This document shows, in pieces, positions 5,858 through 57,851 of a DNA stretch of 64,000 nt; position 1 is the first letter of the stretch; each line of letters opens with the position of its first letter. A program made the translations under genes and the position numbers. The notes beneath the pieces are model-generated. The model saw nothing but the letters and a program-made list of their open reading frames with translations. It was not told the origin of the DNA and did no database searches. The DNA comes from Mytilus trossulus (lineage: Eukaryota): the NCBI RefSeq assembly GCF_036588685.1, contig NC_086374.1:4092001-4156000 (forward strand). Direction: 5' to 3'.

Positions 5858-6095
5858 TTATAGTTATCAAAGGTACCAGGATTAAAATTTAGGACGCCAG
5901 ATGCGCGCTTCGTCTTCATAAGAGCTAATGCGGCGTAAAGCAACCAACAATCAATCAATCAATCAATCAATCTACATAAGAGTCATCAGTACCGCTCATA
6001 TCAAAATATTTATAAAGCCAAACAAGTAAAACGTTGAAGAGCATTCAGGATACAAAATTCCAAAAATTGTGCCGAATACGGCTAAGGTAATCTAT
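5858..6095 (-). mobile_element. Degenerate retrozyme copy interrupted by a short (CAAT)n-tailed retroposon 3' end
   Basis: Hammerhead repeat split at ~5924-5971 by gctaatgcggcgtaaagcaaccaa(caat)n, flanked by the duplication cttcataaga/ctacataaga. Confidence 0.65.
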
Positions 6096-13564: not shown

Positions 13565-13635
13565 ATGATGAGTCTTATGTAGACGAAACGCGCGTCTGGC
13601 GTATAACATTATAATCCTGGTACATTTGATAACTA
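13565..13635 (+). ncRNA. Truncated hammerhead/retrozyme copy (core starts ATGATGA, 5' stem I lost)
   Basis: atgatgagtcttatgtagacgaaacgcgcgtctggcgt. Confidence 0.65.
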
Positions 13636-13822
13636 TGCACAGAGATATATTCTATAATTCAGTTGAAGTTGAAAAAGAAACAACGTAAAAAAGTACATTC
13701 GACAATTATAGACCATTTGACAATTTTTACAAAAGTTACAATAATATTTTTTAGAAAATATTTGATTGCAACTGCGTTTTTATTCAATTTCAAGAGCACA
13801 GATCTTTCAGCACAGCTACAAA

Positions 13823-31100: not shown

Positions 31101-34100
31101 GCATGACTATGTCATAGAGCCATTGTATGATAGTAATAGAAAGGTATACTAGTTAATATAACCTTTGGCATGACTATGTCATAGAGCCATCGTCTGATAG
31201 TAATAGAAAGGTATACTAGTTAATATAACCTTTAGCATGACTATGTCATAGAGCCATTGTATGATAGTAATAGAAAGGTATACTAGTTAATATAACCTTT
31301 AGCATGACTATGTCATAGAGCCATTGTATGATAGTAATAGAAAGGTATACTAGTTAATATAACCTTTAGCATGACTATGTCATAGAGCCATTGTATGATA
31401 GTAATAGAAAGGTATACTAGTTAATATAACCTTTGGCATGACTATGTCATAGAGCCATTGTATGATAGTAATAGAAAGGTATACTAGTTAATATAACCTT
31501 TAGCATGAATATGTCATAGAGCCATTGTATGATAGTAATAGAAAGGTATACTAGTTAATATAACCTTTAGCATGAATATGTCATAGAGCCATTGTATGAT
31601 AGTAATAGAAAGGTATACTAGTTAATATAACCTTTGGCATGACTATGTCATAGAGCCATTGTATGATAGTAATAGAAAGGTATACTAGTTAATATAACCT
31701 TTAGCATGACTATGTCATAGAGCCATTGTATGATAGTAATAGAAAGGTATACTAGTTAATATAACCTTTGGCATGACTATGTCATAGAGCCATTGTATGA
31801 TAGTAATAGAAAGGTATACTAGTTAATATAACCTTTGGTATGACTATGTCATAGAGCCATTGTATGATAGTAATAGAAAGGTATACTAGTTAATATAACC
31901 TTTAGCATGACTATGTCATAGAGCCATTGTATGATAGTAATAGAAAGGTATACTAGTTAATATAACCTTTGGCATGACTATGTCATAGAGCCATTGTATG
32001 ATAGTAATAGAAAGGTATACTAGTTAATATAACCTTTGGTATGACTATGTCATAGAGCCATTGTATGATAGTAATAGAAAGGTATACTAGTAACCTTTGG
32101 CATGACTATGTCATAGAGCCATTGTATGATAGTAATAGAAAGGTATACTAGTTAATATAACCTTTAGCATGACTATGTCATAGAGCCATTGTATGATAGT
32201 AATAGAAAGGTATACTAGTTAATATAACCTTTAGCATGAATATGTCATAGAGCCATTGTATGATAGTAATAGAAAGGTATACTAGTTAATATAACCTTTG
32301 GCATGACTATGTCATAGAGCCATTGTATGATAGTAATAGAAAGGTATACTAGTTAATATAACCTTTAGCATGACTATGTCATAGAGCCATTGTATGATAG
32401 TAATAGAAAGGTATACTAGTTAATATAACCTTTGGCATGACTATGTCATAGAGCCATTGTATGATAGTAATAGAAAGGTATACTAGTTAATATAACCTTT
32501 GGTATGACTATGTCATAGAGCCATTGTATGATAGTAATAGAAAGGTATACTAGTTAATATAACCTTTGGCATGACTATGTCATAGAGCCATTGTATGATA
32601 GTAATAGAAAGGTATACTAGTTAATATAACCTTTGGCATGACTATGTCATAGAGCCATTGTATGATAGTAATAGAAAGGTATACTAGTTAATATAACCTT
32701 TGGTATGACTATGTCATAGAGCCATTGTATGATAGTAATAGAAAGGTATACTAGTTAATATAACCTTTGGCATGACTATGTCATAGAGCCATTGTATGAT
32801 AGTAATAGAAAGGTATACTAGTTAATATAACCTTTGGCATGACTATGTCATAGAGCCATTGTATGATAGTAATAGAAAGGTATACTAGTTAATATAACCT
32901 TTGGCATGACTATGTCATAGAGCCATTGTATGATAGTAATAGAAAGGTATACTAGTTAATATAACCTTTGGCATGACTATGTCATAGAGCCATTGTATGA
33001 TAGTAATAGAAAGGTATACTAGTTAATATAACCTTTGGCATGACTATGTCATAGAGCCATTGTATGATAGTAATAGAAAGGTATACTAGTTAATATAACC
33101 TTTAGCATGACTATGTCATAGAGCCATTGTATGATAGTAATAGAAAGGTATACTAGTTAATATAACCTTTGGCATGACTATGTCATAGAGCCATTGTATG
33201 ATAGTAATAGAAAGGTATACTAGTTAATATAACCTTTGGCATGACTATGTCATAGAGCCATTGTATGATAGTAATAGAAAGGTATACTAGTTAATATAAC
33301 CTTTAGCATGACTATGTCATAGAGCCATTGTATGATAGTAATAGAAAGGTATACTAGTTAATATAACCTTTGGCATGACTATGTCATAGAGCCATTGTAT
33401 GATAGTAATAGAAAGGTATACTAGTTAATATAACCTTTGGCATGACTATGTCATAGAGCCATTGTATGATAGTAATAGAAAGGTATACTAGTTAATATAA
33501 CCTTTGGTATGACTATGTCATAGAGCCATTGTATGATAGTAATAGAAAGGTATACTAGTTAATATAACCTTTGGCATGACCATGTCATAGAGCCATTGTA
33601 TGATAGTAATAGAAAGGTATACTAGTTAATATAACCTTTGGCATGAATATGTCATAGAGCATGTGTCTGATGTATATCGTCACTGTTATGCAAAAATCTT
33701 GTATCTCAATTTTTACGCGGAAATCTTTATAAGAATTATTTAGGATTAAATATGTATGTTCAACTGTATGCGAAAATATCTGATCTTCTAATCAATCATT
33801 TAATCCGAATTCTGATATGTGACGAAAAAGTGTAAACGGATTGGTGAGACATTTCGTTGTGCGAAAATATCATATCTCAAAAGAAAAACATTTTGCACAG
33901 CAGCTGACATTATAGCAGGTACAGTTTTATCAATTTTGGGTTCTCAAAGCTAATATATTAGCTTTAAAATAATGAAAAGCTTTGAAAAAAACAAAGACTC
34001 TTATAAATGTCATAAGTCTTAACCCTATTTCAAGTGCTTATTAACATGTCCGGAACAAGTATGAAGCATATAAATTATAAATCATTTTTTTTTATGAGTT

Positions 34101-37100: not shown

Positions 37101-40100
37101 TTAGCCATGGCCGCCATCTTGGTTGGTTGGCCAAGTTACCGGACACAATTTTTATACTAGACACCCCAAAGATGATTGTGGCCAAGTTTCAATTAATTTG
37201 GCCCAGTAGTTTCAGAGGAGAAGATTTTTCTAAAAGATAACTAAGATTTACGTAAAATGGTTAAAAATTGACTATAAAGGGCAATAACTCCTACAGTGGT
37301 CAACTGACCATTTTGGTCATGTTGACTTATTTGTAGATCTTACTTTGATGAACATTATTGCTGTTTACAGTTTTTCTCTATCTATAATAATATTCAAGAT
37401 AATAACCAAAAACAGCAAAATTTCCTTAAAATTACTGATTCAGGGGCAGCAACCTAACAAAGGAATGTCAGATTCATCTGAAAATTTCAAGGCAGATAGA
37501 TCTTAACCTGATAATCAATTTTACCCCATGTCAGATTTGCTCTAAATGCTTTGGTTTTTGAGTTATAAGCCAAAAACTGCATTTTACCCCTATGTTCTAT
37601 TTTTAGCCATGGCGGCCATCTTGGTTGGTTGGCAAGGTCACCGGACACAATTTTCAAACTAGATACCTCAATGATGATTGTGGCCAAGTTTGGTTAAATT
37701 TGGCCCAGTAGTTTCAGAGGAGAAGATTTTTGTAAAAGTTAACGCCGGACGACGACGGACGACGACAGACGACGGACGCCAAGTGATGAGAAAAGCTCAC
37801 TTGGCCCTTCGGGCCAGGTGAGCTAATAATTAGGACAGCAGTTCAATCCAGTAATGATCCATGAATTACAGAGAAAAGCCAATATTTATTAATCATCTGT
37901 AATGGTATTCTTATTACCTAACAATTACAAATAATTATTTTGAACAAAAGTCTTATTTCTTCAGGACAATTATCCTTCCCCATTCTTTAAACTAATTTTA
38001 TATTACGAGTCAGTCTACAATTTCATCAAATAGGTTCAGACTTCCCAGTGTTCAATTGCTTATATATCTGATATCTAATTTATTAACTGTGTTGAGTGGG
38101 ATAGGAGGGGTGCTGATCCTGAAATCCCGAGCTTAAAAACATGAAACCCTGAGCTTAAAAACACCTGATCCCTGAGTCCTGATAAAGGTCCTATCCTCCC
38201 TCTGTGTTGAATTACCAGACAGACTTCAGGTTCTAAAGCCTCTAGTAACTGGACAGAATAATCTTTCTCTTCACTGTCTTGTTGATGTTGTCTTCTGAAC
38301 CCCCCAATGAGACCCCCTGTTGAATTACCAGACAGACAGCAGGTTTTAATGCCTCTAGTAACTGGACAGAGAAATCTTTCTCTTCACTGTCTTGAACCCC
38401 CCAATGAGACCCCCTGTTGTATTACCAGACAGACAGCAGGTTCTAAAGCCTCTAGTAACTGGACAGAGAAATCTTTCTCTTCACTGTCTTGTTGATGTTG
38501 TCTTCTGTAGCTACACGAAAAAGTGGCATATTTAAATTCACAAGTAAGTTGTCCCTTCATACTGAATTCTTCTTTCCTGACAACTTCTCTAGGACCATAT
38601 CTAGAAGAAAAATGTTTTAACATGATTGAATAAAATCATCAAGAAATAGCAAAGATGTGTATCACAAGGTAAATACATAAAATGTATAATTTCTTTGACC
38701 ATTATGGCCCAAAACAGACTATATGAGCTTTAATGAATAACATATATATGGGTTTTCCTTTGCAACTGCTTTTTTATTTTTACTACAGACCTGATAAAGC
38801 CAAGAGCATTGTCAGTGAATCTGTCATGCCAATTAAAACTTTATATGTAATTATCTGTCATAACATTTTATATTATGACCTTGATAAGATCATGTGCTAT
38901 TAACATACCATATATCCTACTTACACATTGGCTTTCTTTAGCAATTTGAAAACCAAATAAATATAAATGTTAAACTTATTTTGTATTTTATTTCCATTGA
39001 TATGGAAAAGACATGTGAAATAATTACGGTATGAAAGATGTAAACAACTAAAAACTTCATTGATTGAAAGAGAATCTGTAACAAACTGAGATACACATAA
39101 CTCAGATAACATTCAAGGAAAGTTTATTCTATACATTGCAGCTGAAAAGTTGAAGTTATTTTATAAAGATAAATGTATACATGTATAAGTAAGCATTATT
39201 AAACCCATGAAAATGTGAGATTTAATTTACAATTTGCTGAATATTTAAGTTTTGACAACAATCTTTAATTTACAGTTATGTTCATGTGACTGATTGACAT
39301 GTACAATGATGTATGTCAGATTATGATTATTATGGAAACGGGATTTTTATCAAATATGCACATTTTCCTTCTATGTTGATCAATACAAATGTATGATGAT
39401 ATTTCAAATTTTGATTAATAAGAGTTTACATATCGATTCCCTGTATACTCAATAATTAACACTATATAACGTTTGAATCAATTAAAAAGCAAAAAATATC
39501 TTAGAAATATGCAAGGAAATTCATGTAGCGTCAGTTCTTTTGCATTTCTTGGTTACCAGGAACAAAGCATAAGAAACACCTCAGAAATGACTCCTTAATT
39601 TGTTGACAGGCATGTCTCTATTACCATACTACCACTTTCACTATAATATGTTTCCTGTTTAATACTTACACAGAACAAATTATTTTTGTCTCCCCTTGTT
39701 CAATGTAAGCTGAGCCTCTGGCTTGGCTTACTACTCCTGTTTTGATAACTGAAAAAGAAAAGTCTCAATAATGAAGATACATGTACACGAAACTTCTGTA
39801 TATGAAAAGCTTATTAAATGAGTTACCGGTTAAATACAAATTTTATTTTCTTACTTTCACAGAAATAACTAGACAATATATATTGGTAAATCAACAGTTA
39901 TCACAAGCAGAGAAAAAAAATTGTATTTTATGAGTACATCATATGAGTTTTTATTTATGAGTCTTATGTTGTAATCTTTTTTGACTGAGCTGTATTCTGT
40001 GGACTTTTTTTGTCAGTTTTGGCAAAGAAATTGTTACATATAAAAACAAAGATGTGGTATGATTGCCAATGAGACAACTATCCACAAAAGACCAAAATGA

Positions 40101-41414: not shown

Positions 41415-41655
41415 TTTCCTTTTGTATATCGTAATGTTCAAAAGCTCATGAGCGACGAATGGGGGCTGACATATTGAAAATTTGTAAATGTTTAACCAGT
41501 TCCGGTAGTGGTTCCGGATAATCGATTCTTATCTGTATACATTCTGCCAATGTAGGCACACCTCCAATGGAGTTGAATAAAATTGTGTCCTCCACCACGC
41601 AATTTAATAAGTTAAGATGTGTTCAATATTGAAAACAACACGTTATTAATTTCTT

Positions 41656-41697
41656 GCGTCCGAAGCGCTTTTCTGGATTTACCTTCATCAGGAACGC
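41656..41697 (-). ncRNA. Type I hammerhead ribozyme, family 2 (weak stem II)
   Basis: gcgttc-CTGATGA-aggtaaatcca-GAAA-agcgcTTC-ggacgc; stem I pairs, stem III palindrome AAGCGCTT. Confidence 0.7.
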
Positions 41698-41956
41698 TCA
41701 AAGCCAAACATTTGAAATCCGAAGATGGGTAAATTTTTAATTAATTAAAAATACTTAATTCCATCTCGGATGCTTTCGACATTACTCGTTACCTTTCGAC
41801 ATTACTCGTTACCTGTTTGTACAAAAATTTATCGTTCGTAATTTATACGCGTTTTTGATTGGTTAACAGAAATACCTGTTCACTTCAGGTAAATTTTCAT
41901 AAATATTTCCTAGTCATTTCGAAAAGTTTACTGGTCAGTTCAACACGTTAAATTTA

Positions 41957-42207
41957 TGTTATTCTTATTTTCAGAAAAGACTACGGGACATTTTAGAAAA
42001 GTGTGGTTTAAATTCTTCCAAATTTTCCTCTCATTCTTTTCGGAGAGGAGGGGCTACATGGGCTTTTCACAGTCACTGAAAGTTCCTTCCGAGTTGATAC
42101 AATTTCACGGGGATTGGCGTAGTGACGCATATAAAGTTTATTTAGAATTTGATTTACATGACAAATTGTCTATTTCACGAGCTATGGCTGATGAGATTCT
42201 GAATTAA
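41957..42207 (+). pseudogene. Tyrosine recombinase C-terminal remnant (frameshifted)
   Basis: YSYFQKRLRDILEKCGLNSSKFSSHSFRRGGATWAF, frameshift, then LKVPSELIQFHGDWRSDAYKVY (HxxR and catalytic Tyr region). Confidence 0.85.
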
Positions 42208-42209
42208 TA

Positions 42210-42776
42210 TTGTTTGTTTTTCTTATCTTATTTTATTTTTTTGTAGACATTGTGTCAAAAAATAAGGTTTTGTTGCTGTCAGATTCTACTTGTAAATATG
42301 TAAATAACATTAACTGGCTGGAATGCAATGCTATATCTGGTGCTAATATATACACTCTTCATCAATTTGTAAAAGACAACAAATCACTTTTAAGAAAATA
42401 CACACATTTGTTATTGCATGTAGGCACAAATGATGTTGGGAATGGTTTATCCAGTAAATTGATTATTCAATATTATAATAATTTAATTGATTTTATTTGC
42501 AATGTTTTTCCTTCTTTAAAGATAATAGTTTCAGCAATTTTGCCAAGACCTATAGATTTTGATGACACAAAACAAACTGTAATAGAATGTAATAAAGCTT
42601 TGGCTAAGCTTACTTTAAAGAGAAATATTTTATTTGTCAAAACTTATAAGCAATTTGTTCAGCAACCAGGATCTATTTATAAAAGTAAATGTTTTTGTAA
42701 AGATACATTACACTTAAGTTATTTTGGTGTTTCAGTTTTAAGAAACTTTTTTATAGGTGTAGTTAATCATTTGTAA
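42210..42776 (+). CDS. SGNH/GDSL hydrolase ORF of the Ngaro element
   Basis: Blocks LLSDS, SGA, HVGTND and DTLH are all present; TTG start, with a possible splice acceptor at ~42246. Confidence 0.8.
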   Translation: MFVFLILFYFFVDIVSKNKVLLLSDSTCKYVNNINWLECNAISGANIYTLHQFVKDNKSLLRKYTHLLLHVGTNDVGNGLSSKLIIQYYNNLIDFICNVFPSLKIIVSAILPRPIDFDDTKQTVIECNKALAKLTLKRNILFVKTYKQFVQQPGSIYKSKCFCKDTLHLSYFGVSVLRNFFIGVVNHL

Positions 42777-44664
42777 TTATACAATGTTGTATTTAAATGT
42801 ATTTTTTTTTCAAGATACTTTGTGGTTTTTAATTTTATTTTTCAGAAGATGATGGTCAAGAAAGCTGGGCTACACCATTACTTCTACATCTGGTTTACCT
42901 GTGAACCTATATTAGTTTGCAGGATTCCAGAAGTACCTGTTGTTGTATGTATTATCAGGTATGTTTATATTATAATCTAATTTTTTCTTTAATACTGTAC
43001 ACTTTATAGTGGCCGTTGGTTTGGTGCATTTATATATTTTGGAAATTAATATTTATCAAGAATATGGACTTTAAATGAGAAATTTATTTATGACATATGT
43101 ATGATTGTAAATTGTTATTTATGCCAAAATATGATTATCATTACTTATGTGTTGAGTTTTTGTTTTATTACATAGAAATGGGAGAGGAGGGAATTGGTAA
43201 ATTTTTAATTAATTAAAAATACTTAATTCCATCTCGGATGCTTTCGACATTACTCGTTACCTTTCGACATTACTCGTTACCTGTTTGTACAAAAAATTAT
43301 CGTTCGTAATTTATACGCATTTGATTGGTTAACAGAAATACCTGTTCACTTCAGGTAAATTTTCATAAATATTTCCTAGTCATTTCGAAAAGTTTACTGG
43401 TCAGTTCAACACGTTAAATTTACCCACCCTCCCGCCCATTTTATTTTTGTATTATTTGATATTTTTGTACATGTGTTATACCTTATTAAATAGAAGAAGT
43501 TAGTCTTTTTCAGATAATGCAGATTGATGAATTTGATGTCTGTTTGGGAAGTGACTGGTGCATTTATATATTTTGGAAATTAATATTTATCACGAATATG
43601 GACTTTAAATGAGAAATTTATTTATGACATATGTATGATTGTAAATTGTTATTTATGCCAAAATATGATTATCATTACTTATGTGTTAAGTTTTTGTTTT
43701 ATTACATAGAAATGGGAGAGGAGGGAATTTATAAGTACCGAAACCGTTGAAGAGCTGTATGTCAAAAAATACCTAAAATAAATAGCCAAATTCATCTAAA
43801 GCCAACTTTGCCTGAGGGAGTTGAAACCATAGTTTCTTAATAATTTTTAATTTCATAAACGGACAATTTTAGTAAAGTTTACACAATAATATATAATCAA
43901 TAAAAATTACCTTTTCTGTTCTGCCAGTTATTTTGTCTTTGACCCTCTTTGCAGACTAGGACTTATCACTGTCATGATAAATCATGTAAACTAGGAGTTG
44001 CCAACTTGGTAAACACATTCAAGCACAATCCAATCATACTCTTGGTTCTTTTAAACCAGAGTCTAAATATTTTATTCAAAGAAAGGTGTAAGACAGTGAG
44101 ATTCTTTATTCAAGGAGCTTCACATTATTTTATATGTTCTTTATTAAGCACTGTTGATCATTTTTGACTTAACATGCTTAAGTCAGATATTTTTCATGAT
44201 TATCAAAACTGCCGTAAAGCTACTGAATTCAGTCAGTCATAGGATGCCTCAATCTTGCAGATTATTTAATCATATTATCAGAAAGCGAAAATGGTCTGCA
44301 AAATAGCTTGAATAATCTCTCTGAATATTGTGATAAATGGCAATTAACAGAAGTAATTAATACAAACAAATATAAAACTATGATATTACAAAATAACCCA
44401 ATTAATATAAATAAACCCTTTGTGAAGTTTAAAAGAAAATACCTTAAAAATGTCTATCATGGCTATACATAACTTGGATGTTTTATAACATCTAATGGAA
44501 GTCTAACTAGTTGTAGTTCAGATCTTGCAAAAAGCCAACACATGTTTTATTTGCTATAAATTCTTACCTGAAACATATTATACTCACCAGGCTTTGGACC
44601 ACTTCCCGTGGGAGTTTCTTGCAACCTTTTGAAAAAGATCAGACATCAGCAGAAGGTCACCAAG

Positions 44665-45175
44665 GACGAGTTCACTTGAAACTCTCGAGTTAACTTTACT
44701 AACTCGGGTTTCAACAAAACGATTTTACTTGAACTGTCACGGAATAGAAGTTCCTTCATAATATAAGTTCCAAAGGGAAAAACTATACTGGAATATTATT
44801 TCCTCAGGAATAAATGTTACAGTAGATGTTCCTAACGGAATAAATAGTATAGAATATTTGTTCCATCAGGTACAGGTATTATGACATTGTTTATAATAAA
44901 GTTTCCACTGGAACTTCTGTTAGGTGGAACAAATATACGTTGACAGAACCACTCCAGTTAACCCCTCGTACCATGGTTCCAACCCTCACCGAGCCAGGAT
45001 TAACCTCGAGAAACTCTTGAATTAGGCCAAACCAATGAGAATATTTTATTTGCTATGCTTGGGCAGGGCCTTTCCCTATACTTACTTAGAGTTGTTCCGA
45101 ATATCAACTCTTGTGCGTTCACGTGAAAATCTATTAACTCTGAAGTCGATTGTAGAGTTTCAAGTGAACTCGGCC
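44665..45175. mobile_element. Second MITE copy (inverted) carrying a nested 211-bp TGTCA...TGACA element at 44735-44945
   Basis: Same TIR as the 40701 copy, flanks caa/taa; nested insert flanked by a 4-bp GAAC duplication. Confidence 0.75.
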
Positions 45176-48100
45176 TAATAGGTCTTCAATGCAGCTGGAA
45201 ACTCCCGCACACGAAGGCGTCCTTCAGCTGGCCCATAAACAAATATATATATATACTAGTTCAGTAATAATGGACATCATACTTAAATCCGAATGATACA
45301 CAGGAAACTAAAATTAATAATCCTACAAGACTAACAAAGGACAGGGGCTCCTGACTTGGGACAGGTGCATAAATGCGGCGGGGTTAAACATGTTTTTAGA
45401 TATCTCAACCCTCCCCCTATACTTCTAGCCAATGAAGAAAAGTAAAGGGTTACACATAACAATACACACAGTAAAATTCAGTTCAAGATAAATCCGAGAC
45501 CGATGTCAGAAGAGGTAACAAAAGAAAATAAACCAAATGACAATAATACACAAAAAACAACAGACTACTAACAGTTACTGACATGCTAGCTCCAGACCTC
45601 AATTAAACTAATTGAAATATAATGTCTTCATCATATGAATATCAGGCAGAATCCCTCCCATAAGGGGTTTAGTATTGTACCATCATAAAATATATGAGAA
45701 GAACATAACCCGTGTGGTTTGTTTATATGCCTTATTCCATAATTATCTGCTGCTTTATTTTTGTTGAAACCTGCAATACCCATTTCTACTTCCCCACCGG
45801 TCACTTGTTTATGAGTATATCTATTTTGACATTTACCAGAGATAACTTCTTTCTCTTCGTGTTCCAAATATTTTATAAAGTTATTTTTTCAAAATGTATA
45901 TGCCAGCCGTTCATAACTTTGGTTGTCACTGTAATATACTTGATTGTCGACATTGAGTCATTTAAAAGTTTGGATATTTTTCTCTTTGATTTCTGATCAT
46001 TCTAACACAGTTTTGGTATCTGCAATTTTGTAATTTTGGTTCAATTAGTTTTTGCTTTTATTTATTCTTCTGATGGCTATTTATAAACGACACTGTTTCC
46101 TCAATTCATATGTTGTATGTTTCTTTAGTTTCAGGTAAATGTGATCTGGATCATTAAAAGAGGGACGAAAGATACCAGAAAGGAAAGTCAAATGCCTAAA
46201 TCGAAAATAAACTGACACGCCATGGCTAAAAATGAAAAGACTGACAGACAAACAACAGTACACATGACACAACATAGAAAACTAAAGAATAAGCAACACG
46301 AACCCCACCAAAAACTAGGGATGATTTCAGGTGCTCCGGAAGGGTAAGCAGATTCTGCTCCACACCGTTATTTTTCCAGTTATAAAATGCGTTTTTCTTG
46401 TAAATATTAGCTCTACATATCTTGTAATTTTGGCTTTCTTCTTCCTTTTTAGATTTAGGATCAATATCTTAAATTAAGATGTTATTTTATATAATTATAC
46501 CCTCTCCATTTCTTCACGATTTTGTACATTAAATTTGTCAAGTTAATTCTGTCTTGCTTATTTTTCCGTTTAAATTTTGTTCCATTTTCTGCTTTATTAC
46601 AAGTTTTATCTGATGTTTGAGAGTTTTCTACAACTTTGAGTTTTTATCTGATGATGTAAAACAGAAAATCTCAGTTGATAGTGATCCGGGACATAGGCGG
46701 TTACATTAAGTTTCTGTATATCTATAATTTAGTTTCTGTATATCTATATTGATCTCAGAATATTTGTTTTGATAGATACTAGTAATAGTGTCAATGGCAG
46801 TGATATCTTTTTCATTCGAATGTATGTTTCTTTAGAGCATAACTCATAGTCTTGCATACAGTCAGGGATTAAAAAAAAATATGAGAGGAAGCCTCATTAA
46901 TTATGTCTTCATAAAAATTTTCTTCTGCAGACTACATGTATCTTATGACTATTGGAATAGGAACATATATTCTCATTTAATTGGTCTATGTGCATTGTAG
47001 TTACTCATTTTTGCTATTGGTGGGTCTCCAATCTTAATGAACTAGAACTGACAAGAGTTGTCAGTTTTCCTATCGAAGGTCGGTGTTTTCACCAAACAAT
47101 CCGACTTCTTTCACCGATAAAAACTGGCCGACACGAACTAGCCTAAATGAGGTGCTTAAAAGTGGCGTTAAAATACAAAAAATCAAATCTATTTGTGGGT
47201 CTATCGAAAGAAACAAAAATGATGTCCGGAACTTCTTCTAATTCGATGATTAAATTCTACTAGAACCGGCTTTTATAGGTGAAATTTAGGGGTCTAGTTC
47301 CTTTCTCCACAATATTGCACGCCACCATACCCTTTCGGCGTTTGTAATGAAGGCAGTGAGTCATCAGAGTCGACCGACTTTCCTAGTCTCATTTTTTTCA
47401 AGCGAATTTCATTCAACATGTTAGGCTGACAATCAGACAACCAAGGTTCTTTATAAATAAATATATACACCGTCCTTTATTTCTCGGAAGAATAGATCAC
47501 AAGTTTTTTGCAGTTAAAACTATAAATTGTCTTTTTTTTTTCTCCGCACACTCATTAAAATCTAAAATATATTTTGAGCATATCTTGGATGATCTGTATT
47601 TCTTGACTGACAATAGTATGTTTCAAAATATTGTTTTGTGTTATTTTGTACATATATGTGCTTCTGAACATTTTCATTGTTTGTCCAAGTTGGGATAACC
47701 GAATTAGATTATCCTTGCATATGTTATGAGTGTCTAGTTCTGTATGATATAAATTGACAAGATAATTCTCTTTGATCATGGTTTTGATATATTTTGGAGT
47801 TGTATCTTGAGTACTATTAGCCTGCCATTGATATAAATTTCCTTCATTTCTACAGTGTCTGATACTGTTTCATGTGTTTGTTGCAGAGTGTTGTAGTCCA
47901 AATCTCTTTTGCATGAATAGCGTTTTTTTTTGTTTCAGCATCTAAGAAATTGTTACGAAATGACATGTTACATATCAGGCATCTGTTCTCAACTCTTTGT
48001 TATACATTAATGCAGGCATTACACCGAATTTCTTTTTGTAAAATCATGTCAGTTATTGACAAGTCTTGATTATTATCACTTAAAGTATTTCCCCTCTTGT

Positions 48101-48969
48101 TCGAGTTAATGCTGCTGTTCTTACTCATTGTCTGTTTTTTTGTAAACCTTATAATTACTATTTCCATTATTTTTGCATTTCTTATCCGTTGCTTGAGTTT
48201 TAATCCGAATAAAAATCAGTTTTACGAAATAATATGGAATCTACACACGCCTAAACACATGTCTTATATATGTACATCTAAAGATTCGTATGTGTACTCC
48301 TATTGCTACGGAAATAATGTTCAGTTTGGATGAGTTTTTACGAAAACATATTCGAAAAAAAAGCATCAATGTGTATATTACCTTTATGTTAGGATGCAAC
48401 TTTTAATACGAAAAATCAAATGAAGTGTGTATTTGTTGTTTCTTCTTCACTTGACTCTTAAATTGTCTCCGTTAACAGTCTGTTTGTTGTAATACCCTTT
48501 TTATGTATTTACCGACAATAAATTCAAATGATTTGCATTTTCATACCCGGGAATTAGTTTTAAATTGATTAACAAGTGAGAGGTTTATCTAGCTTCAAAA
48601 TCAGGTTTAATCCCCTATTTTCTACATTACCTGTACCAATTTAGGAATATGTCAGTTGTTCTCCATTCGTATGATGGGTTTGAGCTTTAATTTACATTTG
48701 GTAGTTTGATTAAGGACTTTCTGGTTCAAATTTTCCTCGAACTTCGGTATTTATGTTATTTTACTTTTTGTCAGTTTGTTTCTAATTTATCACCGTCAGG
48801 TAAAAAATCAGTGAAATCGCAATATTTTTCCGTATAGAAAGAGCTTTGTAAGCTCTAGTATCTTAAGCAAATTTTACTGATCATGATTTGATATCAGCCA
48901 AAGATCTGAAAGAAAATAAGCCACTTACAAAATAAAAAGAACTATCATAAATATCTGTATCCCTCGATT

Positions 48970-51900
48970 TTATTTACAATTTCGAAGAACTACTCTCCCA
49001 TTAGAAGGCTGCTTAGGTCTACAGTTTCCTGCTTTAGATATTTGTTCGTGATTATATATTGTTTCCATCTCTCGCAACGTCTTTAGCTTGAAATAAAAGA
49101 TGGAGTGAACAATTAGTTTATTAGACTTTAGATTTTATAACAGACTCAATAGCAAAAGTAGCAAAATAGTAAATGTGTAAATGTAAATTGATGAGTCTTT
49201 TGCAGACGAAACGCGCGTCTGGCGTATATACAAAATTTAGTCCTGGTATCTATGATGAGTTTATTTACAACCACTGGGTCGATGCCACTGCTGGTGGAGA
49301 TTTATTTCCATCAGTTTATCACCATTCCAGTAGTCAGCACTTTTGTGCTGACATGAATTATCATTGTTATGGTTATATTTATAAATTAACTGTTTACAAA
49401 ATTTAGAATTTTTGAAATACTAAGGCTTTTCTACCTCAGGCATAGATTACCTAAGCTGTATATTGTAAATTTTTTAGGAAGTTTGGTTCTCAATTTATTT
49501 GGCCTTTTAAACTTTTTTGGATTCGAGCGTCACTGATGAGTCTTTTGTAGACGAAACGCACGTCTGGCGTATATACAAAATTTACTCCTGGTATCTATGA
49601 TGAGTTTATATACAACGAGTTGTATATGAACGTATAGTTCGTCTATTTAATGCTGGTGGACGTTTCGTCACCGAGGGTATCACCAGCCCAGTAGTCAGCA
49701 CTTCGGTGTTGACATGAATATCAATTATATGGTCATTTTTATAAATTTTCTGTTTACAAAACTTTTTTCGAAAAACTAAGGATTTTTTTAATCCCAGGAG
49801 TAGATTACCATAGCCGTATTTGACACAACTTTTTGGAATTTTGGATCCTCAATGCTCTTCAACTTTGTATTTATTTGGCTTTTTAAATATTTCGATCTGA
49901 GCGTCACTGATGAGTCTTATGTAGACGAAACGCGCGTCTGGCGTATAAAATTATAATCCTGGTACTTTTGATAACTATTTACACCACTGGGTCGATTCCA
50001 CTGCTGGTGGATGTTTCGTCCCCGAGGGTATCACCAACCCAGTAGTCAGCACTTCGGTGTTGACATGAATATCAGTTATATGGTCATTTTTATAAATTTT
50101 CTGTTTACAAAACTTTGAATTTTTCGAAAAACTAAGGATTTTCTTATCCCAGGAGTAGATTACCTTAGTCGTATTTGGCACAACTTTTTGGAATTTTGGA
50201 TCCTCAATGCTCTTCAACTTTGTATTTATTTGGCTTTTTAAATATTTCGATCTGAGCGTCATTGATGAGTCTTATGTAGACGAAACGCGCGTCTGGCGTA
50301 TAAAATTATAATCCTGGTACTTTTGATAACAATTAGACACTGACAAATGCAGTCTATATGATATAATAGTTTAGTATTATAATTAGTAAGCCAGACGCGT
50401 GTTTAGTCTACATAAGACTCATCAGTGACGCTCAAATCGAAATATTTATAAAGCCAAACAAGTACAAAGTTGAAGAGCATTGAGGATTCAAAATTACAAA
50501 AAGTTGTGCCAAATACGGCTAAGGTAATCTAGGCCTGGACTAAGAAATCCTTAATTTTTCGAAAAATTCAAAGTTTTGTAAGCAGGAAATTTATAAAAAT
50601 GACCAGATGATTGATATTCATGTCAACACCGAAATGTTGACAACTTGGTTGGTGATACCCTCGGGGACTTAAAAATAACTAGATTTCAATAGTTGGCTGG
50701 GTAGTTAAATATGGTTATCCCGTCCTGCAGCCCATTTAGTTGTGCAGAATGTATAAAAACGTAGCCACGTCCAGTCAAAATGAGGACTTAAAATCGGATC
50801 CTTCGCGTAGGTTGAGGTCCATGCTTTCTGCCGTATCTCAAATCAATTTGCAAGAAATCTTCGAGCGCTCTGTTGGAATTTCTATTCTATTGGACATGCC
50901 CTTTTTTTGAATCGGGAGTCCAAAACTCCGATCTTTATTTCCAAAACCTTCCTTGTATAATCTTACGTATCTATATATATTGTTAATTGTGCCTTGTCCT
51001 GAAAATGTCTAATATATTTTCCGATGGACTTAAAGGAAGCATCAATCACATCGATCAATCAATCCAAATGATTATATTAATCATTTCTTTGATTAGAAAA
51101 TGAGTAATATGTTGCAATTAATGACTTGCTCAGAGGTTCAATACTATAAAATGCCAAAGTATCGTAAACAGAAAGTGACTAAATTACTAGAAGTTTAAAA
51201 ATCGATTACAAGAACAACATTTTTTCAATGCTCCAGATGAATATAAAAAAAAGATCTCAATATTTGGTAATATGTAACGGACATTCAGCTATATAATTTA
51301 AATTTGAAGGATCGTCAAATTGAAGGAGGTGGAACATGCAAAACTATTGACGCTTTGAAAATTGTAAATTTCCTTTAAATACATTCAAGCATTACTGATA
51401 CTTGTAAAAGAAAAGAAAGTGACTGACTTGCAGATTTGAAAATCGCTTTCATAGAACAATTCAACATTGTACAGTATTAAACCAAATATTTCCTTAATAC
51501 ATAATCTGAGTAATATGTGTCATCCAATGGTCGTTACAGATATCAAATCATACCCTTCCTTGATACTGAAGCGATGATAAAGCAACGAAATTTATGAACA
51601 AAGTTTTTACGACTCTACGGAATGACTGACGGACGAAAAGAATAGTCCGTTAAGGTACCTGTAGTATACCATCCACTCATGTCATTGATAGTTTTACATC
51701 GATTCTGGGAGGAAAACTTTATGCCAAAATAGACCACTTTCGAGTTCATCCGTCACCGGAAAAAACTCGTCAATTATGCACGCCTTCATGATGTCATTTA
51801 CCAGATAGAGGGGTCGCCTGTATCCCTGTACTATTTACGTTCATCAAGCGTCTTAGTGATCGGCATTGTGCAGGATAAACTAGAAATAATGGTTGCTCTG

Positions 51901-54900
51901 TAGGGACTTACTGACAATTCCCTAATGACAGCAGTGTTGATTGTCAATTTTGAGAATTCTATTTGCCGAAAAATTCGTACAATATAGAATTATAGTTTCC
52001 AACCACTCAACATTGGAATGTAAGTGACGACCCCTCTAAACGCACAAATGACGTTCACCAAAACCAGTTTTTGACGGAAATGCACCGAACTCGAAAGTTG
52101 TTTATTGATATAATTGAAAAAAATAATAGAAAATGTACTCTATCTGTGCTAATCAGATATTTGTATACAATGACAGCCATACAACTAAGTTCTATTGAAA
52201 CATTCATTTTATGGTAACACTTGTACATATTCAACTCCAGCAAATAAACGTTATTTTTTTTTCTTTAAATGTGCAAAGCACTATGGGTTTGTCACTGAAA
52301 ACCTTTTGATAAATCTGCATTTGCTCAGCTTTTAGCTTTGAAAGGAGAGAAAATCGGTTGTAATAAGTGAATTTAAAAAATAATGAACAAATCGTTTTCA
52401 TATCACAAAAAATTAGAGTAACAGGGTATACATATTTTGTAAAATAAAACAATTAAAATGAATGGAGGTTCTTACCGTTTTATTACTGATGTGAACTGGA
52501 TGCTTGAAGACAACCCAATTCACACTCTGGAAACAGCCGGGAGTTGTAAGGGATCCTTTGTAAAAGTAAGAATCATCTTTCTTCGGTAGTAGAGTAAAAG
52601 GATTAAATTTAGTTTTCACATGCCCTAAAAAAAATGAGAAAAAATAAGTCCAGTCTTATATTTGTATTGTGTCCCGTAGAAACAAATATATGTTTTTATT
52701 TTTTTGTCAACAATATTTCATTGATTTCATTTACCAAAACATTTGTTCACATCATGTAAATATTTTCTTTCCAGAACAAAATGACATCTGTTCACGATTT
52801 TTTTCAGTTCTTTATTGCATGTCCTAATAAAGGCAACCCTTCAGCGAGCATATGGTCCTGAAAGCAGAAAATTTACTTTTTCTATATTCGGTTTAATTTA
52901 TTCACAACTTTAATTAGACTCGGCGATGATCTGTTTGTAGAATAATCGCATCAAACGCAAATGCTGTTCGTTCGATAACGAGCCGGGTAAAAAAAGCGAT
53001 CAAATAATTGTAAATTGCTGCAACGACTCGAAGGTCTCGCCTTCGGAATAATAATATAGTGCCAAGTCAGACTCGCAAGTCTTCTTGCGGATCGTTACCT
53101 TGTGAAATTGCAAGTTAGAAATTCGGCTCCACGTGTCCGCCTTGTACACAGCAGAGTATATAATCATATAACATATACATGTCCTTGGCATGATATTAAT
53201 GCAATATTTCCAACTGGATATTACTACTTGAAACATCTGTGTCTATATCCATCGTTTCATCCTCTTTTCATAAGACATCTAAAAACCTACCTTGAATGGA
53301 TTTCAGTTTGTGTCCATATTGGTTGATGAATTTGTCAAAAGCATTGAATTTTTGGTTCAAATCCTTAAAAATTAGAAATTCACACATTCAGCTTTAGATG
53401 TTGAGGTTACAAAATAAGATCTTTTACAATAATGCTAAATTTTAAAGTATGTGAATGCTCAAAAACCAAAGTAAGCGTTATCTTTTGATAGTTTTGAATT
53501 CATTGATATATTAATGAATATCTGAGCAATAATTGGAAAGAATTCAAAACAAATTTAAAACGTATCCTGCCATTTTCAGCATATCAAAATATTTTCAAAT
53601 TACATATTTAAGGTACTGTATATTCATTTATTTTCGTTGTACGACTATTTTTTTTGGATGATCACAAATGGTATTACCCCAAATGTATATGATGTATGCA
53701 TGTCAGGCTTTTCATATCCGCAAATACCAGAATACAAATTTTAAACAAAATGTACACAATTTTATTAAAATAATATTTACCTCTAAAAATATGCCAAGAA
53801 CCACGAGTCCATCATCCTTATTAACTGCCTTGCTAAATGTGTCATATTTTGTGTTATAATGTACCATATGCATCTATAGAACGAAATGTATTACATATAT
53901 AGTTATCAAAGGTACCAGTATTATAATTTAGTAGGCCAGACGCGCGTTTCGTCTACATAAGACTCATCAGTGACGCTCATATCAAAATATTTATAAAATA
54001 CCATGGGAATCAATCAATTTATATTGAATGGTCAATTATAATTGATAGCAGCCTGTCAAAATTACAGAGGTCGATAGCTTTGTTGATAAATTGAAATTAT
54101 ATCTACTTTTCTCCTGATTGATTGGTTGATTGATTGTCGTTTAACACACTTTTAACACTATTGCGGTATTTCGTGGCGGTCAGTATTTCAGTGATAAAGA
54201 AAGCCAGAGTGCCAGGAGAGAATCGAGAATCAGTAGGAAGACTGACAATCCTAGAAATTCAGATTGGAGTCGAGTTCACTTGTTCCGTGTTTCTTTAGAT
54301 AATACATGTAATTTACTTTTAACGAGAATGTATCATCCGCATTATCATTTTCTATTTTAGTGGACCGTGAAAATGGGATAAAACTCTAATTTAGCATTAA
54401 ATTAGAAAGATCCTATCATAAGGAACATGTATACTAAGTTTCATTAACTTCATTTAACTTCATTAAAAACTACCTCGACTAAAAACATTAATCTGCAGAT
54501 AGATCTTCACCCGATGAACATTTTTACTTTAATAGTTTTGCCCTAAATGCTTTGGTTTTTGAGTTATTCGCCAAAAACTGCATTTTACCCCTATATAGAT
54601 ATAGGAAGATGTGGTGTGAGTGCCAATGAGACAACTCTCCATCCAAATAACAATTTAAAAAGTAAACCATTATAGATTAAAGTACGGCCTTTAACACGGA
54701 GCCTTGGCTCATGTTCTATTTTTAGCCATGGCGGCCATCTTGGTTGGTTGACCGGGTCACCAGACACATTTTTATAACTACATACCCTAATGATGATTGT
54801 GGCCAAGTCTACATAAGACTCATCAGTGACGCCCATATCAAAATAGTTATAAAGCCAAACAAGTACAAAGTTGAAGAGCATTGAGGATTCAAAATTCCAA

Positions 54901-57851
54901 AAAGTTGTGCCAAATACGGCTAAGGTAATCTATTCCTTGGACAAAAAAATCCTTAGTTTTTCGAAAATTTCAAAGTTTTGTTAACAGGAAATTTAAAAAA
55001 ATGACCACATAATTGATATTCATTTCAACAACGAAGTGCTGACTACTGGACTGGTGATACCCTCGGGGACGAAACGTCTAACATATAGCATATAAAGTAT
55101 AGCTTAAGTTATAAAAAAAACTATATTGTACCAACAAAATTACCAAATTACCAAAAAAAAAGAAAATACAAAAATAACAGACTATTTGATATAATAGAAT
55201 CATTATATAATCTTAGGCCTAATAGTTAAAGTATGTATTGTAGTTTTACCTCTCCGGCGTACTTTTTACCATCAACAGAATGTTCGGAACCATCATTCTC
55301 GCTGTGTCCAAAGTGAAAATGGAAGTTATACAATTCAAAAATGTCAGTGGTGAATCTTGGGATCCCAGATATTTGTGTACCTTTGTCATTTAATGTGAAT
55401 GTCGGTGAATGTCCTGAAAGAATAGGAAAATGTATCTAGAATATGTACTTCCTGAACAACAAACACAATGATATTAATACCGAAATTAAACTTTAATTGA
55501 GGCCTTTGTATTGGGTTTTGATATAGAAAGGATTATGCGTTAATTGTTGTTTGCCTGTGTGTTGATAATGTTTACAAAAACATGAATGCAAATTAAACTG
55601 TAGAACAACATGTTAAAATCTAAATAATGCCTTATTAAAATCGGATTATCACTAAAAGGTTGATCAAATCACCAATAACACGTTAACATCAGGTAGAAGT
55701 AGATGTTAACTTTATATCAAGGTTAATCTCTCTCGGAATCATAAGTAACATATTGAAATACTAAATGTTTTGTTTGTCGTACTTTGTTCATATAACAAGT
55801 TCCATATGCATTTCATCAAAAGAGAGACCAAAACATATCGACTATTCAAAACATCAGTTATAAATCATAGTAACATAAGTATTCGACGCCGTATTTGTAA
55901 TAAAGGGATTATGGTCGCTCTTTCAATTGATTACCGTTATTTTTAAACATTCCTTTAAAATTACAGCCTTCTATCAGGTAATTCAGCTTGAATGGATAAT
56001 ACAGTGCATCATTGGTAACTACGTTGATAGGTGATTGTCGATCTCCTTTACAATCAGGCCAGAACAAACCCCAGTTTTGAGGACCTGTAATGTAATCATA
56101 CAAAATAGCCTTAAATAAATCCTATTCACTACAATAGTTTTATGGTGTAACCTCAAAAAAGATGTAATATTTCTTAGAATTCAGTAATATTGTTTTTCGT
56201 GAATTGGTTTGTCATATATCAGTCTTTGTTGTTTTTCGTTAATTGGTTTGTCATACATCAGTCTTTGTTGTTTTCGTTGGTTTTTTTTAGCTGACTGTGC
56301 GGTATGGGTATTATTTATTGTTGAAGACCGAAATATTACACACTCACATTGCACACTTTATCACTTTATTTCAAACGGAACTACAATAATGGTAACACTT
56401 TGTAAACGCAAACCCTATAGATCTGCGATCGTTGTACAGAAAGTTCACTCCTATAGTTGGCATGATTGTTAACCATCATGTGAAGTGTACCATATGATAC
56501 GGGACTTCCCTTTTTTTTGACACTTTGTGAATGCAGTTGAAGATTTAAAAGGTTGTTAAAGTCTCACCACATACAGTAAACATGAAAACAAGATACACAT
56601 ATATGAAATATCAAAAATGAAGTTGTGAGTCGATAATACGTTTATTCTAATTCAGAAATCATGTATAAAACAAATAAAACATATATGTGACCTATAGTTG
56701 TTACTTTCTATATAAATGCATATCTATAATAAAATGAACGGTACTAATTTTCTTGCACCAGATGCGCATTTCGACAATACATGTCTCTTCAGTGATACTC
56801 GTGGCCAAAATATTTGAAATCCAAAGTTTATAAAGAAGATGAAGAGCTATAATCCAAAAGGTCCAAAAAGTATAAGCTATACACATAAAAAAAAACATTA
56901 TAAAATGCAAATACTGGTACTCCTTGACAAAGCAGGTTTTGAAAACAATATTAGAACTAGATAAATACTTGTTTTCTTATTGTAATATTACAACTTAAAT
57001 AAATGAACAGAGCATACGCTAGATCTACGTATGATGGACATGTTAAAAGTACATGTTTTTTTATGATGATCTAAATAAAGGCAACAGTATTATACCGCTT
57101 TTCAAACTCATAAATCCATGGACAAAAAACAAAATCGGGATAACAAACTAAAACCGAGGGAAACGCATTAAATATAAGATAAATACATATTGTTACTCCT
57201 CTGAAACCATTTGACAGCAAGCTCTAGCAGTTGCTGTTCATTGGTAAGTTGGTTTGCCATCATGTGTTGTCAAAATAATTGAAACACACAATGTTATTCC
57301 TCATTTTTACAACGGCTGTGGATTTTTCGCGCTACAGCGCCGAAATGTTCATGTTCCAACTGTCAGCAATTGAGAGTATATATTTGTATAAAGTTCTCTT
57401 GGACATAAAAAACTGGTAACATTTTTTAGCAAGCGTTTCACTCTCACATTAACTTACCAATTACAACTTCCGTTCAAAAGATTAGTTAAATAAAATAGTT
57501 CAGGTAGTGGCATTTTTTTGCATGAAATCACAGTTTAGCATAACTAAATGCATATACAGGAATTGTTTTTGAAGAATGGAGATTAGCTGTTCTGCATTTA
57601 CGTCTATGAAGCTGTCTATTACAAGACTGCAGCTATATGTACCACTTGTATGCTGTTTCGATATATAAATAACAAAGTTCGTCAAAAACGATCATAAAAG
57701 AATATTTACCCATGATGCCGTTTTTAACATAGTCAAATCCAAAACCATGATGTGTCTTACGGGCCGGTAGATGTATCTTCTTCGATTGTCCCTTGTTTAA
57801 AATGATTAAAATAACACTAAAAACTAGTAAAGTTAACCTTAGTATCTCCAT
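48970..57851 (-). CDS. Secreted alpha-carbonic anhydrase, 7 exons, ~295 aa
   Basis: Exons 57851-57710, 56084-55935, 55413-55250, 53873-53781, 53363-53291, 52624-52476, 49086-48970; signal peptide, [53 protein letters not shown]; phases consistent (888 nt). Confidence 0.93.
49186..50332 (+). ncRNA. Tandem retrozyme-like array: four type I hammerhead motifs spaced 345, 374 and 355 bp
   Basis: Cores start at 49188, 49533, 49907 and 50262; best copy gcgtca-CTGATGA-gtcttatgtagac-GAAA-cgcgcGTC-tggcgt, predicted cleavage after 49938. Confidence 0.9.
50375..50670 (-). mobile_element. Inverted retrozyme copy with mutated core (GAAA to TAAA)
   Basis: Reverse complement of the array unit; gtagacTAAAcacgcgtc. 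Confidence 0.8.
51728..52106. mobile_element. MITE with imperfect terminal inverted repeats
   Basis: aatagaccactttcgagttc / gaactcgaaagttgtttatt. Confidence 0.7.
53933..53976 (-). ncRNA. Type I hammerhead ribozyme (family 1), intact core, in carbonic anhydrase intron 3
   Basis: gcgtca-CTGATGA-gtcttatgtagac-GAAA-cgcgcGTC-tggcct. Confidence 0.8.
54808..55080 (-). mobile_element. Retrozyme copy truncated within the hammerhead
   Basis: CTGATGA and stem II present; GAAA and stem III replaced by another repeat. Confidence 0.75.
56755..56798 (-). ncRNA. Type I hammerhead ribozyme, family 3, in carbonic anhydrase intron 1
   Basis: gtatca-CTGAAGA-gacatgtattgtc-GAAA-tgcgcATC-tggtgc; stems I and II pair, stem III palindrome ATGCGCAT. 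Confidence 0.8.

Follow-up and report, generated by a model that had tools for sequence, protein, structure and literature searches.

Among described hammerhead-bearing repeats, the closest to the locus reported here is the retrozyme of the mussel Mytilus galloprovincialis, with repeats of 350–390 bp and ~5000 motifs in two ribozyme families; its hammerhead cleaves with a kobs of ~0.1/min, circRNAs have been reported, and tertiary contacts between loops 1 and 2 are mostly absent from the motifs described (PMC7229834). A second relevant group comprises the hammerheads of Penelope-like elements, which have a short palindromic helix III, cleave as dimers, and fall into many sequence families per genome that differ by compensatory changes (PMC4209133; Lunse et al. 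2017 via PMC6765202, PMC7761336). PMC7229834 leaves the mobilising enzyme open but names Penelope-like elements as candidates. Palindromic helix III with dimer cleavage and covarying hammerhead families (PMC4209133), like the mussel retrozyme itself (PMC7229834), are already described. The window analysed here (the whole 64,000-nucleotide stretch of DNA) contains hammerheads of three homologous subfamilies of a ~350-bp non-coding repeat, which is likely a mussel non-LTR retrozyme; its transcripts would self-cleave, be circularised, and be recopied by a borrowed reverse transcriptase.

Hammerhead motifs in the window

A sequence-only reading had proposed three hammerhead families with different palindromes in helix III. 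Type I hammerhead motifs with these palindromes are confirmed for all three (49901–49944, 53933–53976, 41656–41697, and 56755–56798), and further copies and fragments surround them:

1473–2008, minus strand: two tandem family 1 motifs, at 1865–1909 (broken palindrome) and 1516–1559
5853–6095, minus strand: decayed family 1 fragments (5853–5926 and 5971–6095) flanking a (CAAT)n microsatellite
13566–13636, plus strand: 3′ part of a family 1 copy without the 5′ strand of helix I; 3′ end 40 nt beyond the cut site
41625–41727, minus strand: 3′ fragment of a family 2 copy of the probable retrozyme; 100% identical over 103 nt to the related contig L003; ends 37 nt past the cleavage site
41656–41697, minus strand: family 2 motif; helix III AAGCGCUU, UUC site, predicted cut 3′ of 41662
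41728–43729, unstranded: insertion of ~2.0 kb, at most a non-autonomous Ngaro-like derivative, interrupting the family 2 copy
43730–43878, minus strand: 5′ part of the interrupted family 2 copy; 89–96% identical to L003, alignable to the repeat bodies of families 1, 3, and 4
49187–50334, plus strand: family 1 tandem array, units of ~345, 374, and 355 bp
~49187–49225, plus strand: family 1 motif of the array, 5′ part missing
49527–49570, plus strand: family 1 motif of the array, broken palindrome
49901–49944, plus strand: family 1 motif; helix III ACGCGCGU, GUC site, palindrome intact, predicted cut 3′ of 49938
50256–50299, plus strand: family 1 motif of the array, core C3 altered
50373–50668, minus strand: family 1 copy, tail-to-tail with the 49187–50334 array
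50388–50431, minus strand: family 1 motif of that copy, with a core change and broken palindrome
53897–53997, minus strand: short 5′-truncated family 1 copy containing the motif at 53933–53976; 3′ end 43 nt beyond the cut site
53933–53976, minus strand: family 1 motif; helix III ACGCGCGU, GUC site
54807–55078, minus strand: family 1 body fragment, breaking off within the hammerhead after helix II
56722–56874, minus strand: 5′-truncated family 3 copy of the probable retrozyme; 93% identical to the related contigs L025 and L019; 3′ end 34 nt beyond the cut site
56755–56798, minus strand: family 3 motif; helix III AUGCGCAU, AUC site, predicted cut 3′ of 56761

The CUGANGA … GAAA core and an NUH triplet are present in the cited motifs of all three families. 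As the reading had it, helix I pairs in each (6/6 positions in the motifs starting at 49901, 41656, and 56755; 5/6 in that at 53933), and helix II is well paired in families 1 and 3, with 4 bp each, and weak in family 2, where it consists of an A·A and two G-C pairs. Pair G10.1-C11.1 with a helix II of ~4 bp is thus present in families 1 and 3 and absent in family 2, which we therefore name a variant rather than a canonical type I hammerhead. In each family's reference copy, the 5′ and 3′ ends pair with each other as helix I, and helices II and III are hairpins; helix III of families 1–3 comprises 2 bp and a tetraloop in the monomer and 8 bp in the dimer.

A strict descriptor matched the window five times and none of 40 Markov-shuffled windows; a relaxed descriptor matched it 11 times, against a mean of 0.65 (maximum 3) in the shuffled set. 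Counts so far above the shuffled windows indicate that the motifs are not due to chance. Family members account for nine of the 11 relaxed matches, and the remaining two (2110–2156 and 37924–37970) were put down to chance. Families 2 and 3 each have a single copy in the window; the family 2 motif is identical in the related contigs L002 and L003.

The Rfam model Hammerhead_1 (RF00163), whose consensus helix III is ACGCGCGU followed by C, as in family 1, matched only that family (five matches of 27–33 bits, below the gathering score of 34) and identified no hammerhead in six loci bearing family 2, 3, or 4 motifs. A model that leaves out tertiary contacts does not predict the active fold to be favoured in isolated motifs (probability ~1e-5 to 1e-6). 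By sequence, the motifs have the type I hammerhead fold and would be expected to self-cleave.

One repeat, several subfamilies

The three versions exist, but they are not distinct families in the sense first proposed; they are homologous and lie at an equivalent point of a single ~350-bp non-coding repeat. All units align colinearly, with 70–76% identity among families 1–3 and 64–70% to a fourth family (family 4), which occurs in related contigs. Tandem spacing is 355 bp for family 1, 350 bp for family 3 (two motifs in L025), and 339 bp for family 4 (in contig L012); no tandem array of family 2 was seen, though its unit nonetheless aligns to the others. Each of the four tandem arrays consists of one family only (the window arrays at 1516/1865 and 49187–50334, L025, and L012). 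Ten family 1 copies of helix III occur within 64 kb, and summed contig depth over the three families is 1.3e5–2.6e6, against 61–122 in unique bins, a qualitative sign of repetition rather than a copy number.

No ORF of at least 120 aa lies within the repeat units, and their reading frames have no match in Pfam. Metazoan non-LTR retrozymes are non-coding tandem repeats with units of 150–450 bp, one type I hammerhead per unit, and G+C under 50%; they lack LTRs, PBS, and PPT and may be bordered by target-site duplications. Local G+C of the repeat is 0.32–0.36. The family 1 unit folds no better than shuffled sequences (z −0.68), and the family 3 unit folds better (z −2.1). Viral contigs scanned for the repeat returned no matches; prokaryote genomes returned three loci in one scan and none in another, and the three are apparently host DNA in symbiont assemblies.

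Palindromic helix III hammerheads in many sequence families are known from Penelope-like elements (PMC4209133), and the family 2 and 3 motifs in the window are single, 5′-truncated, and share a clustered 3′ end, as do Penelope copies. They might accordingly be taken to derive from the pseudo-LTRs of autonomous Penelope-like elements, surviving as isolated 3′ fragments with no relation to the family 1 repeat. However, in L003 and L025 these motifs continue into the family 1 repeat body at 70–76% identity, with the L025 motifs in tandem at 350 bp, and the 90 reading frames scanned (4 plus 86 of 164 listed) contained no reverse transcriptase or GIY-YIG domain. For these copies the pseudo-LTR reading is largely refuted, and we consider it highly improbable.

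Ngaro-like tyrosine-recombinase retrotransposons carry split direct repeats of the form A1…B1 A2 B2 and an SGNH hydrolase ORF (bioRxiv 10.1101/2021.08.05.455354). The insertion that interrupts the family 2 copy matches both features: self-BLAST recovers split direct repeats (A…B-A-B, with 133 nt between A2 and B2), and its only ORF reaching 120 aa is an SGNH/GDSL ORF at 42195–42776 (Pfam PF13472, E 5.7e-9). Reverse transcriptase/RNase H and tyrosine recombinase ORFs, by contrast, are missing among its ORFs of at least 120 aa. The insertion site is empty in L003. A transporter ORF adjoins the repeat in L003, and this contig may be chimeric; however, 25 contigs of run X1 contain the joint 41727>43730, skipping 2002 nt, and separately confirm the empty site.

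Covariation, palindromes, and dimeric cleavage

Covariation among the families had been taken as evidence of selection on ribozyme structure. Given homology, this is supported: all 10 of the helix I pairs that changed between subfamilies still pair, four of them through changes on both sides, and the retention of pairing through these changes argues for selection on the fold. Changes on both sides between subfamilies also occur at two helix II pairs and at pair 15.2:16.2. In a neutral simulation, core, helix I, and palindrome were retained together in 0.06–0.2% of lineages, a figure to be read with the motifs having been partly chosen as hammerhead-like.

The claim does not extend to the genomic copies, which decay. 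The palindrome is intact in 6/10 and broken in 4/10 family 1 copies of helix III, and intact in two and broken in two of the four family 3 copies. Among aligned family 4 copies it is broken in 26 of 32; this count leaves out 10 of 42 matches that align poorly, all of them more decayed, so that their inclusion would reduce the intact share. None of the 40 variants listed, beyond which there are 777 further rows, falls in any helix III, which is no test of palindrome conservation. The selection supported here acts on master elements; genomic copies are not under it, and their decay proceeds at the CpG rate.

The sequence-only reading further suggested that the palindromes could confine cleavage in dimers to partners of one family. 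In its strong form, this would mean that cleavage occurs mainly as dimers, and that distinct palindromes were selected so that each subfamily cuts only its own kind. Predicted energies agree in direction: double hammerheads reach −29.5, −23.5, and −23.3 kcal/mol as homodimers and −13.1, −8.2, and −3.0 kcal/mol as heterodimers, and cross-family helix III cores have a mismatch at 15.2:16.2 in five of six combinations and a U·G wobble in the sixth. The GCGC of the palindromes is unchanged across three lineages (neutral chance ~0.08), and family 4 has the palindrome even with a monomer helix III of just 1 bp, suggesting that dimers matter in the clade. As a function, however, the proposal is weak. 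GCGC is invariant and shared, helix III differs between families 1–3 solely at pair 15.2:16.2, and this pair is required by the monomer too; a difference of one base pair makes a selected same-family-only rule unlikely. Differences in helix I enlarge the predicted heterodimer penalty, which means that discrimination does not depend on the palindrome alone, and with 4/4 arrays single-family, partners in cis are already alike. Invertebrate retrozyme hammerheads are also reported as monomer cleavers (PMC7761336), the palindrome is broken in the many copies counted above, and compensatory divergence of any kind would bring about such incompatibility even if nothing selected for it. Selection for family-specific cutting is therefore quite unlikely in our view. 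Heterodimers are predicted to be disfavoured as a by-product of divergence, and the bench prediction that homodimers cleave better than heterodimers may still hold despite the weakness of the functional claim.

The motifs of families 2 and 4 have a helix II of 2 bp with A·A in place of G10.1-C11.1, and family 2 may for this reason cleave poorly. One possible reading is that family 2 (and 4) represents a retrozyme lineage with a mostly inactive hammerhead, spreading from uncleaved transcripts. Besides the reduced helix II, the failure of Rfam to find a hammerhead in either family is consistent with this, as is the report that insertion by a Penelope element in vitro did not require cleavage (PMC11167929). 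However, both families retain the core and the NUH site, helix I pairs at 6/6 positions, and the palindrome persists, with pair changes on both sides; cleavage is also reported for an axolotl retrozyme whose helix II has a basal U·U mismatch (PMC7229834). A lineage of this kind seems unlikely. The escape of this motif from Rfam implies that hammerhead counts in such genomes may be too low, a point of modest value.

The 3′ ends, proposed cycle, and known systems

The 3′ ends of terminal copies lie 40, 41, 43, 21, 40, and 38 nt past the cut site in six family 1 copies, 37 and 40 nt in family 2, and 34, 33, and 34 nt in family 3. Across families 1–3, 10/11 terminal copies thus end 33–43 nt past the cut, while 5′ ends are variable. 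Among family 4 matches, 41/42 fail to continue into the repeat body, and their end points are lower bounds, the 3′ reference being just 33 nt long. The clustering resembles the 30–40-bp "tail" of Penelope, which comes from internal reverse transcription starts (PMC11167929), though a true tail has two distinct end points. Because copies extend 33–43 nt beyond the cut, the template, whether a circle or an uncut multimer, would span the cut site.

By analogy with published work on the mussel retrozyme, tandem units would be transcribed by read-through, cleaved after the NUH triplet once per unit, and ligated into a circle by a host ligase. Cleavage could occur as a monomer, with 2 bp and a GCGC loop in helix III, or as a cis double hammerhead of neighbouring units with an 8-bp palindromic helix III. 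A borrowed reverse transcriptase would write the circular RNA back into the genome, starting, as we infer here, at a fixed internal point, as in Penelope-like elements; against this, no Penelope-like partner element was found. Differences in helix III would reflect one compensatory pair fixed per master lineage. Contigs from RNA runs cover the families at a depth, relative to DNA, not above that of neighbouring repeats without a hammerhead: in run X19 the bins of families 1, 2, and 3 have RNA-to-DNA ratios of ~1.5e-3, ~4e-4, and ~7e-4, respectively, versus 3–5e-3 in two such repeat bins. Contig depth, a poor measure, gives no sign of specific expression; contigs show neither circles nor strand, and the three RNA runs contained just 5–6% of sampled words.

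A broader reading would combine orthogonal double-hammerhead pairs (a self-recognition code in helix I and 15.2:16.2), families 2/4 as an undescribed, dimer-dependent variant with a vestigial helix II that escapes Rfam, and mobilisation of all families by a Penelope-like reverse transcriptase starting 33–43 nt past the cut on the RNA circle; as a whole we find this unlikely. The Penelope-like start alone is close to an even proposition, and likelier than a selected self-recognition code. The clustered 3′ end is of modest value as a testable footprint of the mobilising enzyme. Neither this clustering nor a 2-bp helix II with A·A was found in earlier reports within the literature searched, a set without Lunse et al. 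2017 or the supplement of PMC7229834, either of which may describe them, and the available part of PMC7229834 mentions neither.

Among known systems, the minimal hammerheads of Penelope-like elements share with the repeat described here a palindromic helix III, several covarying sequence families, and, for the present repeat as a possibility, dimer cleavage. However, as described they lie within pseudo-LTRs that flank an RT/GIY-YIG ORF, and their helix III is all but absent, whereas the present unit is non-coding and its helix III has 2 bp and a tetraloop. Axolotl HHR_Amex1 and HHR_Amex2 offer a parallel as two subfamilies that share a genome but have separate units; one motif has a 1-bp helix III and a palindromic tetraloop, like family 4, and one resembles families 2 and 4 in a basal mismatch of helix II, there U·U rather than A·A (PMC7229834). 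Amphibian motifs, as reported there, require dimers for efficient cleavage and retain contacts between loops 1 and 2. Likeness to the mussel retrozyme of PMC7229834 is one of described features, and that description counts two families, whereas three occur in the window and a fourth in related contigs. Both are nonetheless multicopy, non-coding tandem repeats of low G+C with a unit of 350–390 bp, each unit bearing a single type I hammerhead, and both comprise more than one ribozyme family; the construct name Mg353 may be set beside the units of 355 and 350 bp found here.

Motifs and gene context

The hammerhead motifs picked out by the sequence-only reading are all present on inspection of the window, and structural alignment returned the same stem pairing that had been claimed for the three families (type I motifs with GUC, UUC, and AUC cleavage sites in families 1, 2, and 3, respectively). 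A strict descriptor gave five matches in the window versus none in each of 40 Markov-shuffled windows; a relaxed descriptor gave 11, nine of which are family members (seven of family 1 and one each of families 2 and 3). Among the family-1 copies, the one at 49901–49944 is alone in being free of core or helix defects. The family-1 palindrome is also the consensus sequence for helix III in Rfam Hammerhead_1; searching the window with this model yielded five family-1 matches of 27–33 bits, below the gathering score of 34, and did not detect families 2 and 3. Position labels used here (10.1, 11.1, 15.2, and 16.2) follow the usual hammerhead numbering convention.

With a G+C of 0.29–0.36, the window is A+T-rich and of animal type, and it includes coding segments for a Toll-like receptor, an amine oxidase, and a carbonic anhydrase. 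Other features include:

2630–5263, minus strand, Toll-like receptor ORF, single exon, 877 aa, LRR and TIR domains
26384–33660, satellite, 67-bp unit, 109 copies, 97% match
45632–45696, minus strand, SECIS_1-like Rfam match, E 0.058, 30.4 bits (gathering score 35), within highly repeated DNA
55250–56082, minus strand, carbonic anhydrase, two exons (Pfam PF00194)

Selenoproteins are encoded by some bivalve Naiad elements (PMC8557442), a possible connection for the SECIS_1-like match. The family-3 motif at 56755 and family-1 copies at 54807 and 53933 lie within 3 kb of the carbonic anhydrase exons, on the same strand; if retrozyme copies are in the introns of this gene, active ones could cut its pre-mRNA.

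Repeat units and the fourth subfamily

Family 1 sits in a 355-bp tandem repeat (49651–50334), with more copies elsewhere in the window; at 50018–50668 the array is followed by an inverted family-1 copy, tail-to-tail, forming a long inverted repeat. The pattern used to scan metagenome contigs was limited to the first half of the core and its upstream flank, with no constraint on helix II or III. It matched 47 times at 45 loci (L001–L045): two matches are of family 2 (L002, L003), three are of family 3 (one in L019, two in L025), and the other 42 belong to a fourth family. A second pattern, restricted to the repeat body, added three loci, two of them from a deep-sea mussel symbiont assembly; the family-4 motif was found in two of the three (L046, L048). 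This fourth subfamily, absent from the window, has a 6-nt helix III palindrome, and its helix II consists of A·A plus 2 bp, as in family 2. Several local tandem duplications of the first half of the core occur in three family-4 loci (L009, L018, L007). Directly after the family-4 motif, in L046 (1001–2107) and L047, a retrozyme body piece of ~74 bp is amplified into a long tandem array; both contigs derive from a bacterial symbiont assembly, and the sequence looks like host DNA.

The family-1 repeat body continues from the motif in L003 (family 2) and L025 (family 3), and motif pairs are spaced 350 bp apart in L025 (family 3) and 339 bp apart in L012 (family 4). The units are colinear on alignment, with identities of 75% (families 1/3), 70% (1/2), and 76% (3/2), and of 64–70% between family 4 and the others. 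They are homologous, non-coding, and carry one motif each, with structure preserved across lineages. No RT or GIY-YIG domain appeared among 90 reading frames scanned (four, plus 86 of 164 listed). In DNA run X1, the contig depth added up to 1.3e5–2.6e6 over all three families, very high next to the 61–122 of unique bins; coverage of the families in RNA-run contigs was not above that of other repeats.

The family-2 copy in the window is in two pieces (43730–43878 and 41625–41727) flanking a 2.0-kb Ngaro-like insertion, and the empty site is present in L003 and 25 contigs of X1. The inserted element (41728–43729) is non-autonomous, with split direct repeats (~230 and ~174 bp) and an SGNH ORF, and is without RT or recombinase; it entered the retrozyme 30 nt upstream of the hammerhead. 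X1 depth suggests that it is itself moderately repeated. By eye, a stretch of the family-2 upstream flank (41700–41725, minus strand) is complementary to the loop and 3′ arm of helix II (41665–41680, minus strand), which could provide an alternative fold that blocks the ribozyme.

Copy ends and decay

Beyond the cut site, the six terminal family-1 copies run on for 40, 41, 43, 21, 40, and 38 nt; a further four copies are array-internal. The corresponding values are 37 and 40 nt in family 2 and 34, 33, and 34 nt in family 3, and 41 of 42 family-4 matches show no run-on into the body; on the 5′ side, copies reach anywhere between 3 and 330 nt. We infer that the template included the cut site and so would have been a circle or uncut multimer spanning it, with reverse transcription beginning at a fixed internal point. 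Units would be transcribed, self-cleave, and circularize, as described in PMC7229834, where Penelope-like elements are put forward as strong candidates to mobilize retrozymes. Internal starts tied to a 30–40-bp tail have been shown for a Penelope-like enzyme (PMC11167929).

Within families, genomic copies have decayed, with a perfect palindrome in 6/10 copies of family 1, 3/3 of family 2, 2/4 of family 3, and 6/32 aligned matches of family 4 (10 of 42, poorly aligned, were left out). Family-4 mismatches per site in helix III (0.28) approximate those at flanking CpG sites (0.25), against 0.12 in the non-CpG flank.

Covariation, dimers, and known retrozymes

The proposed selection on ribozyme structure is supported between subfamilies, at the level of master elements. 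Relative to family 1, ten helix I pairs are changed in families 2, 3, and 4, four of them on both sides, and all ten still pair; some changes are common to several lineages, leaving ~8 distinct events. Families 1 and 3 also differ at two helix II pairs, each altered on both sides. In neutral simulations, an altered helix I pair remained paired 39% of the time, and at 25–30% divergence the core, helix I, and palindrome were all retained in 0.06–0.2% of lineages, a contrast inflated by the partial choice of motifs for hammerhead likeness, except for the family-4 copy in L048, recovered via its body.

It had also been proposed that family-specific palindromes could restrict dimer cleavage to same-family partners. 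In the double hammerhead, helix I and helix III are each built from both partners. The homodimers have predicted energies of −29.5, −23.5, and −23.3 kcal/mol, compared with −13.1 (1/2), −8.2 (1/3), and −3.0 (2/3) kcal/mol for the heterodimers. Pair 15.2:16.2, the sole helix III pair changed among families 1–3 (C-G, A-U, U-A), is mismatched in five of six cross-family cores and a U·G wobble in the sixth (family-3 enzyme strand, family-1 substrate). Weak energies and mismatches together predict poor cleavage between families. That dimers matter is favored by the central GCGC, identical in families 1–3 (chance ~0.08 by simulation), and by family 4, which as a monomer can form just 1 bp of helix III, although a CG run that loses one dinucleotide stays palindromic automatically. 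The heterodimer prediction may still hold, but same-family cleavage as a selected rule seems unlikely: the monomer also requires 15.2:16.2, helix I differences contribute to the heterodimer penalty, all four tandem arrays observed are single-family, and efficient self-cleavage in monomer form is reported for most type I motifs of invertebrates (review PMC7761336).

The motifs are real and were rightly seen, yet the element is of a kind already known, and structural selection between subfamilies is already published in general form. Penelope-like elements are known to carry hammerheads with a short palindromic helix III, cleavage as dimers, and many families per genome that differ by compensatory changes (PMC4209133; also PMC6765202). 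The mussel retrozyme of PMC7229834, probably the element at hand, has ~5000 motifs in two families, in 350–390-bp repeats, with a cloned repeat cleaving at ~0.1/min; families 1–3 may correspond to the published ones. In the axolotl, the same paper describes a subfamily whose helix II is mismatched at its base. Against this background, two modest, testable points are added: the shortened helix II shared by families 2 and 4, and the clustering of 3′ ends.
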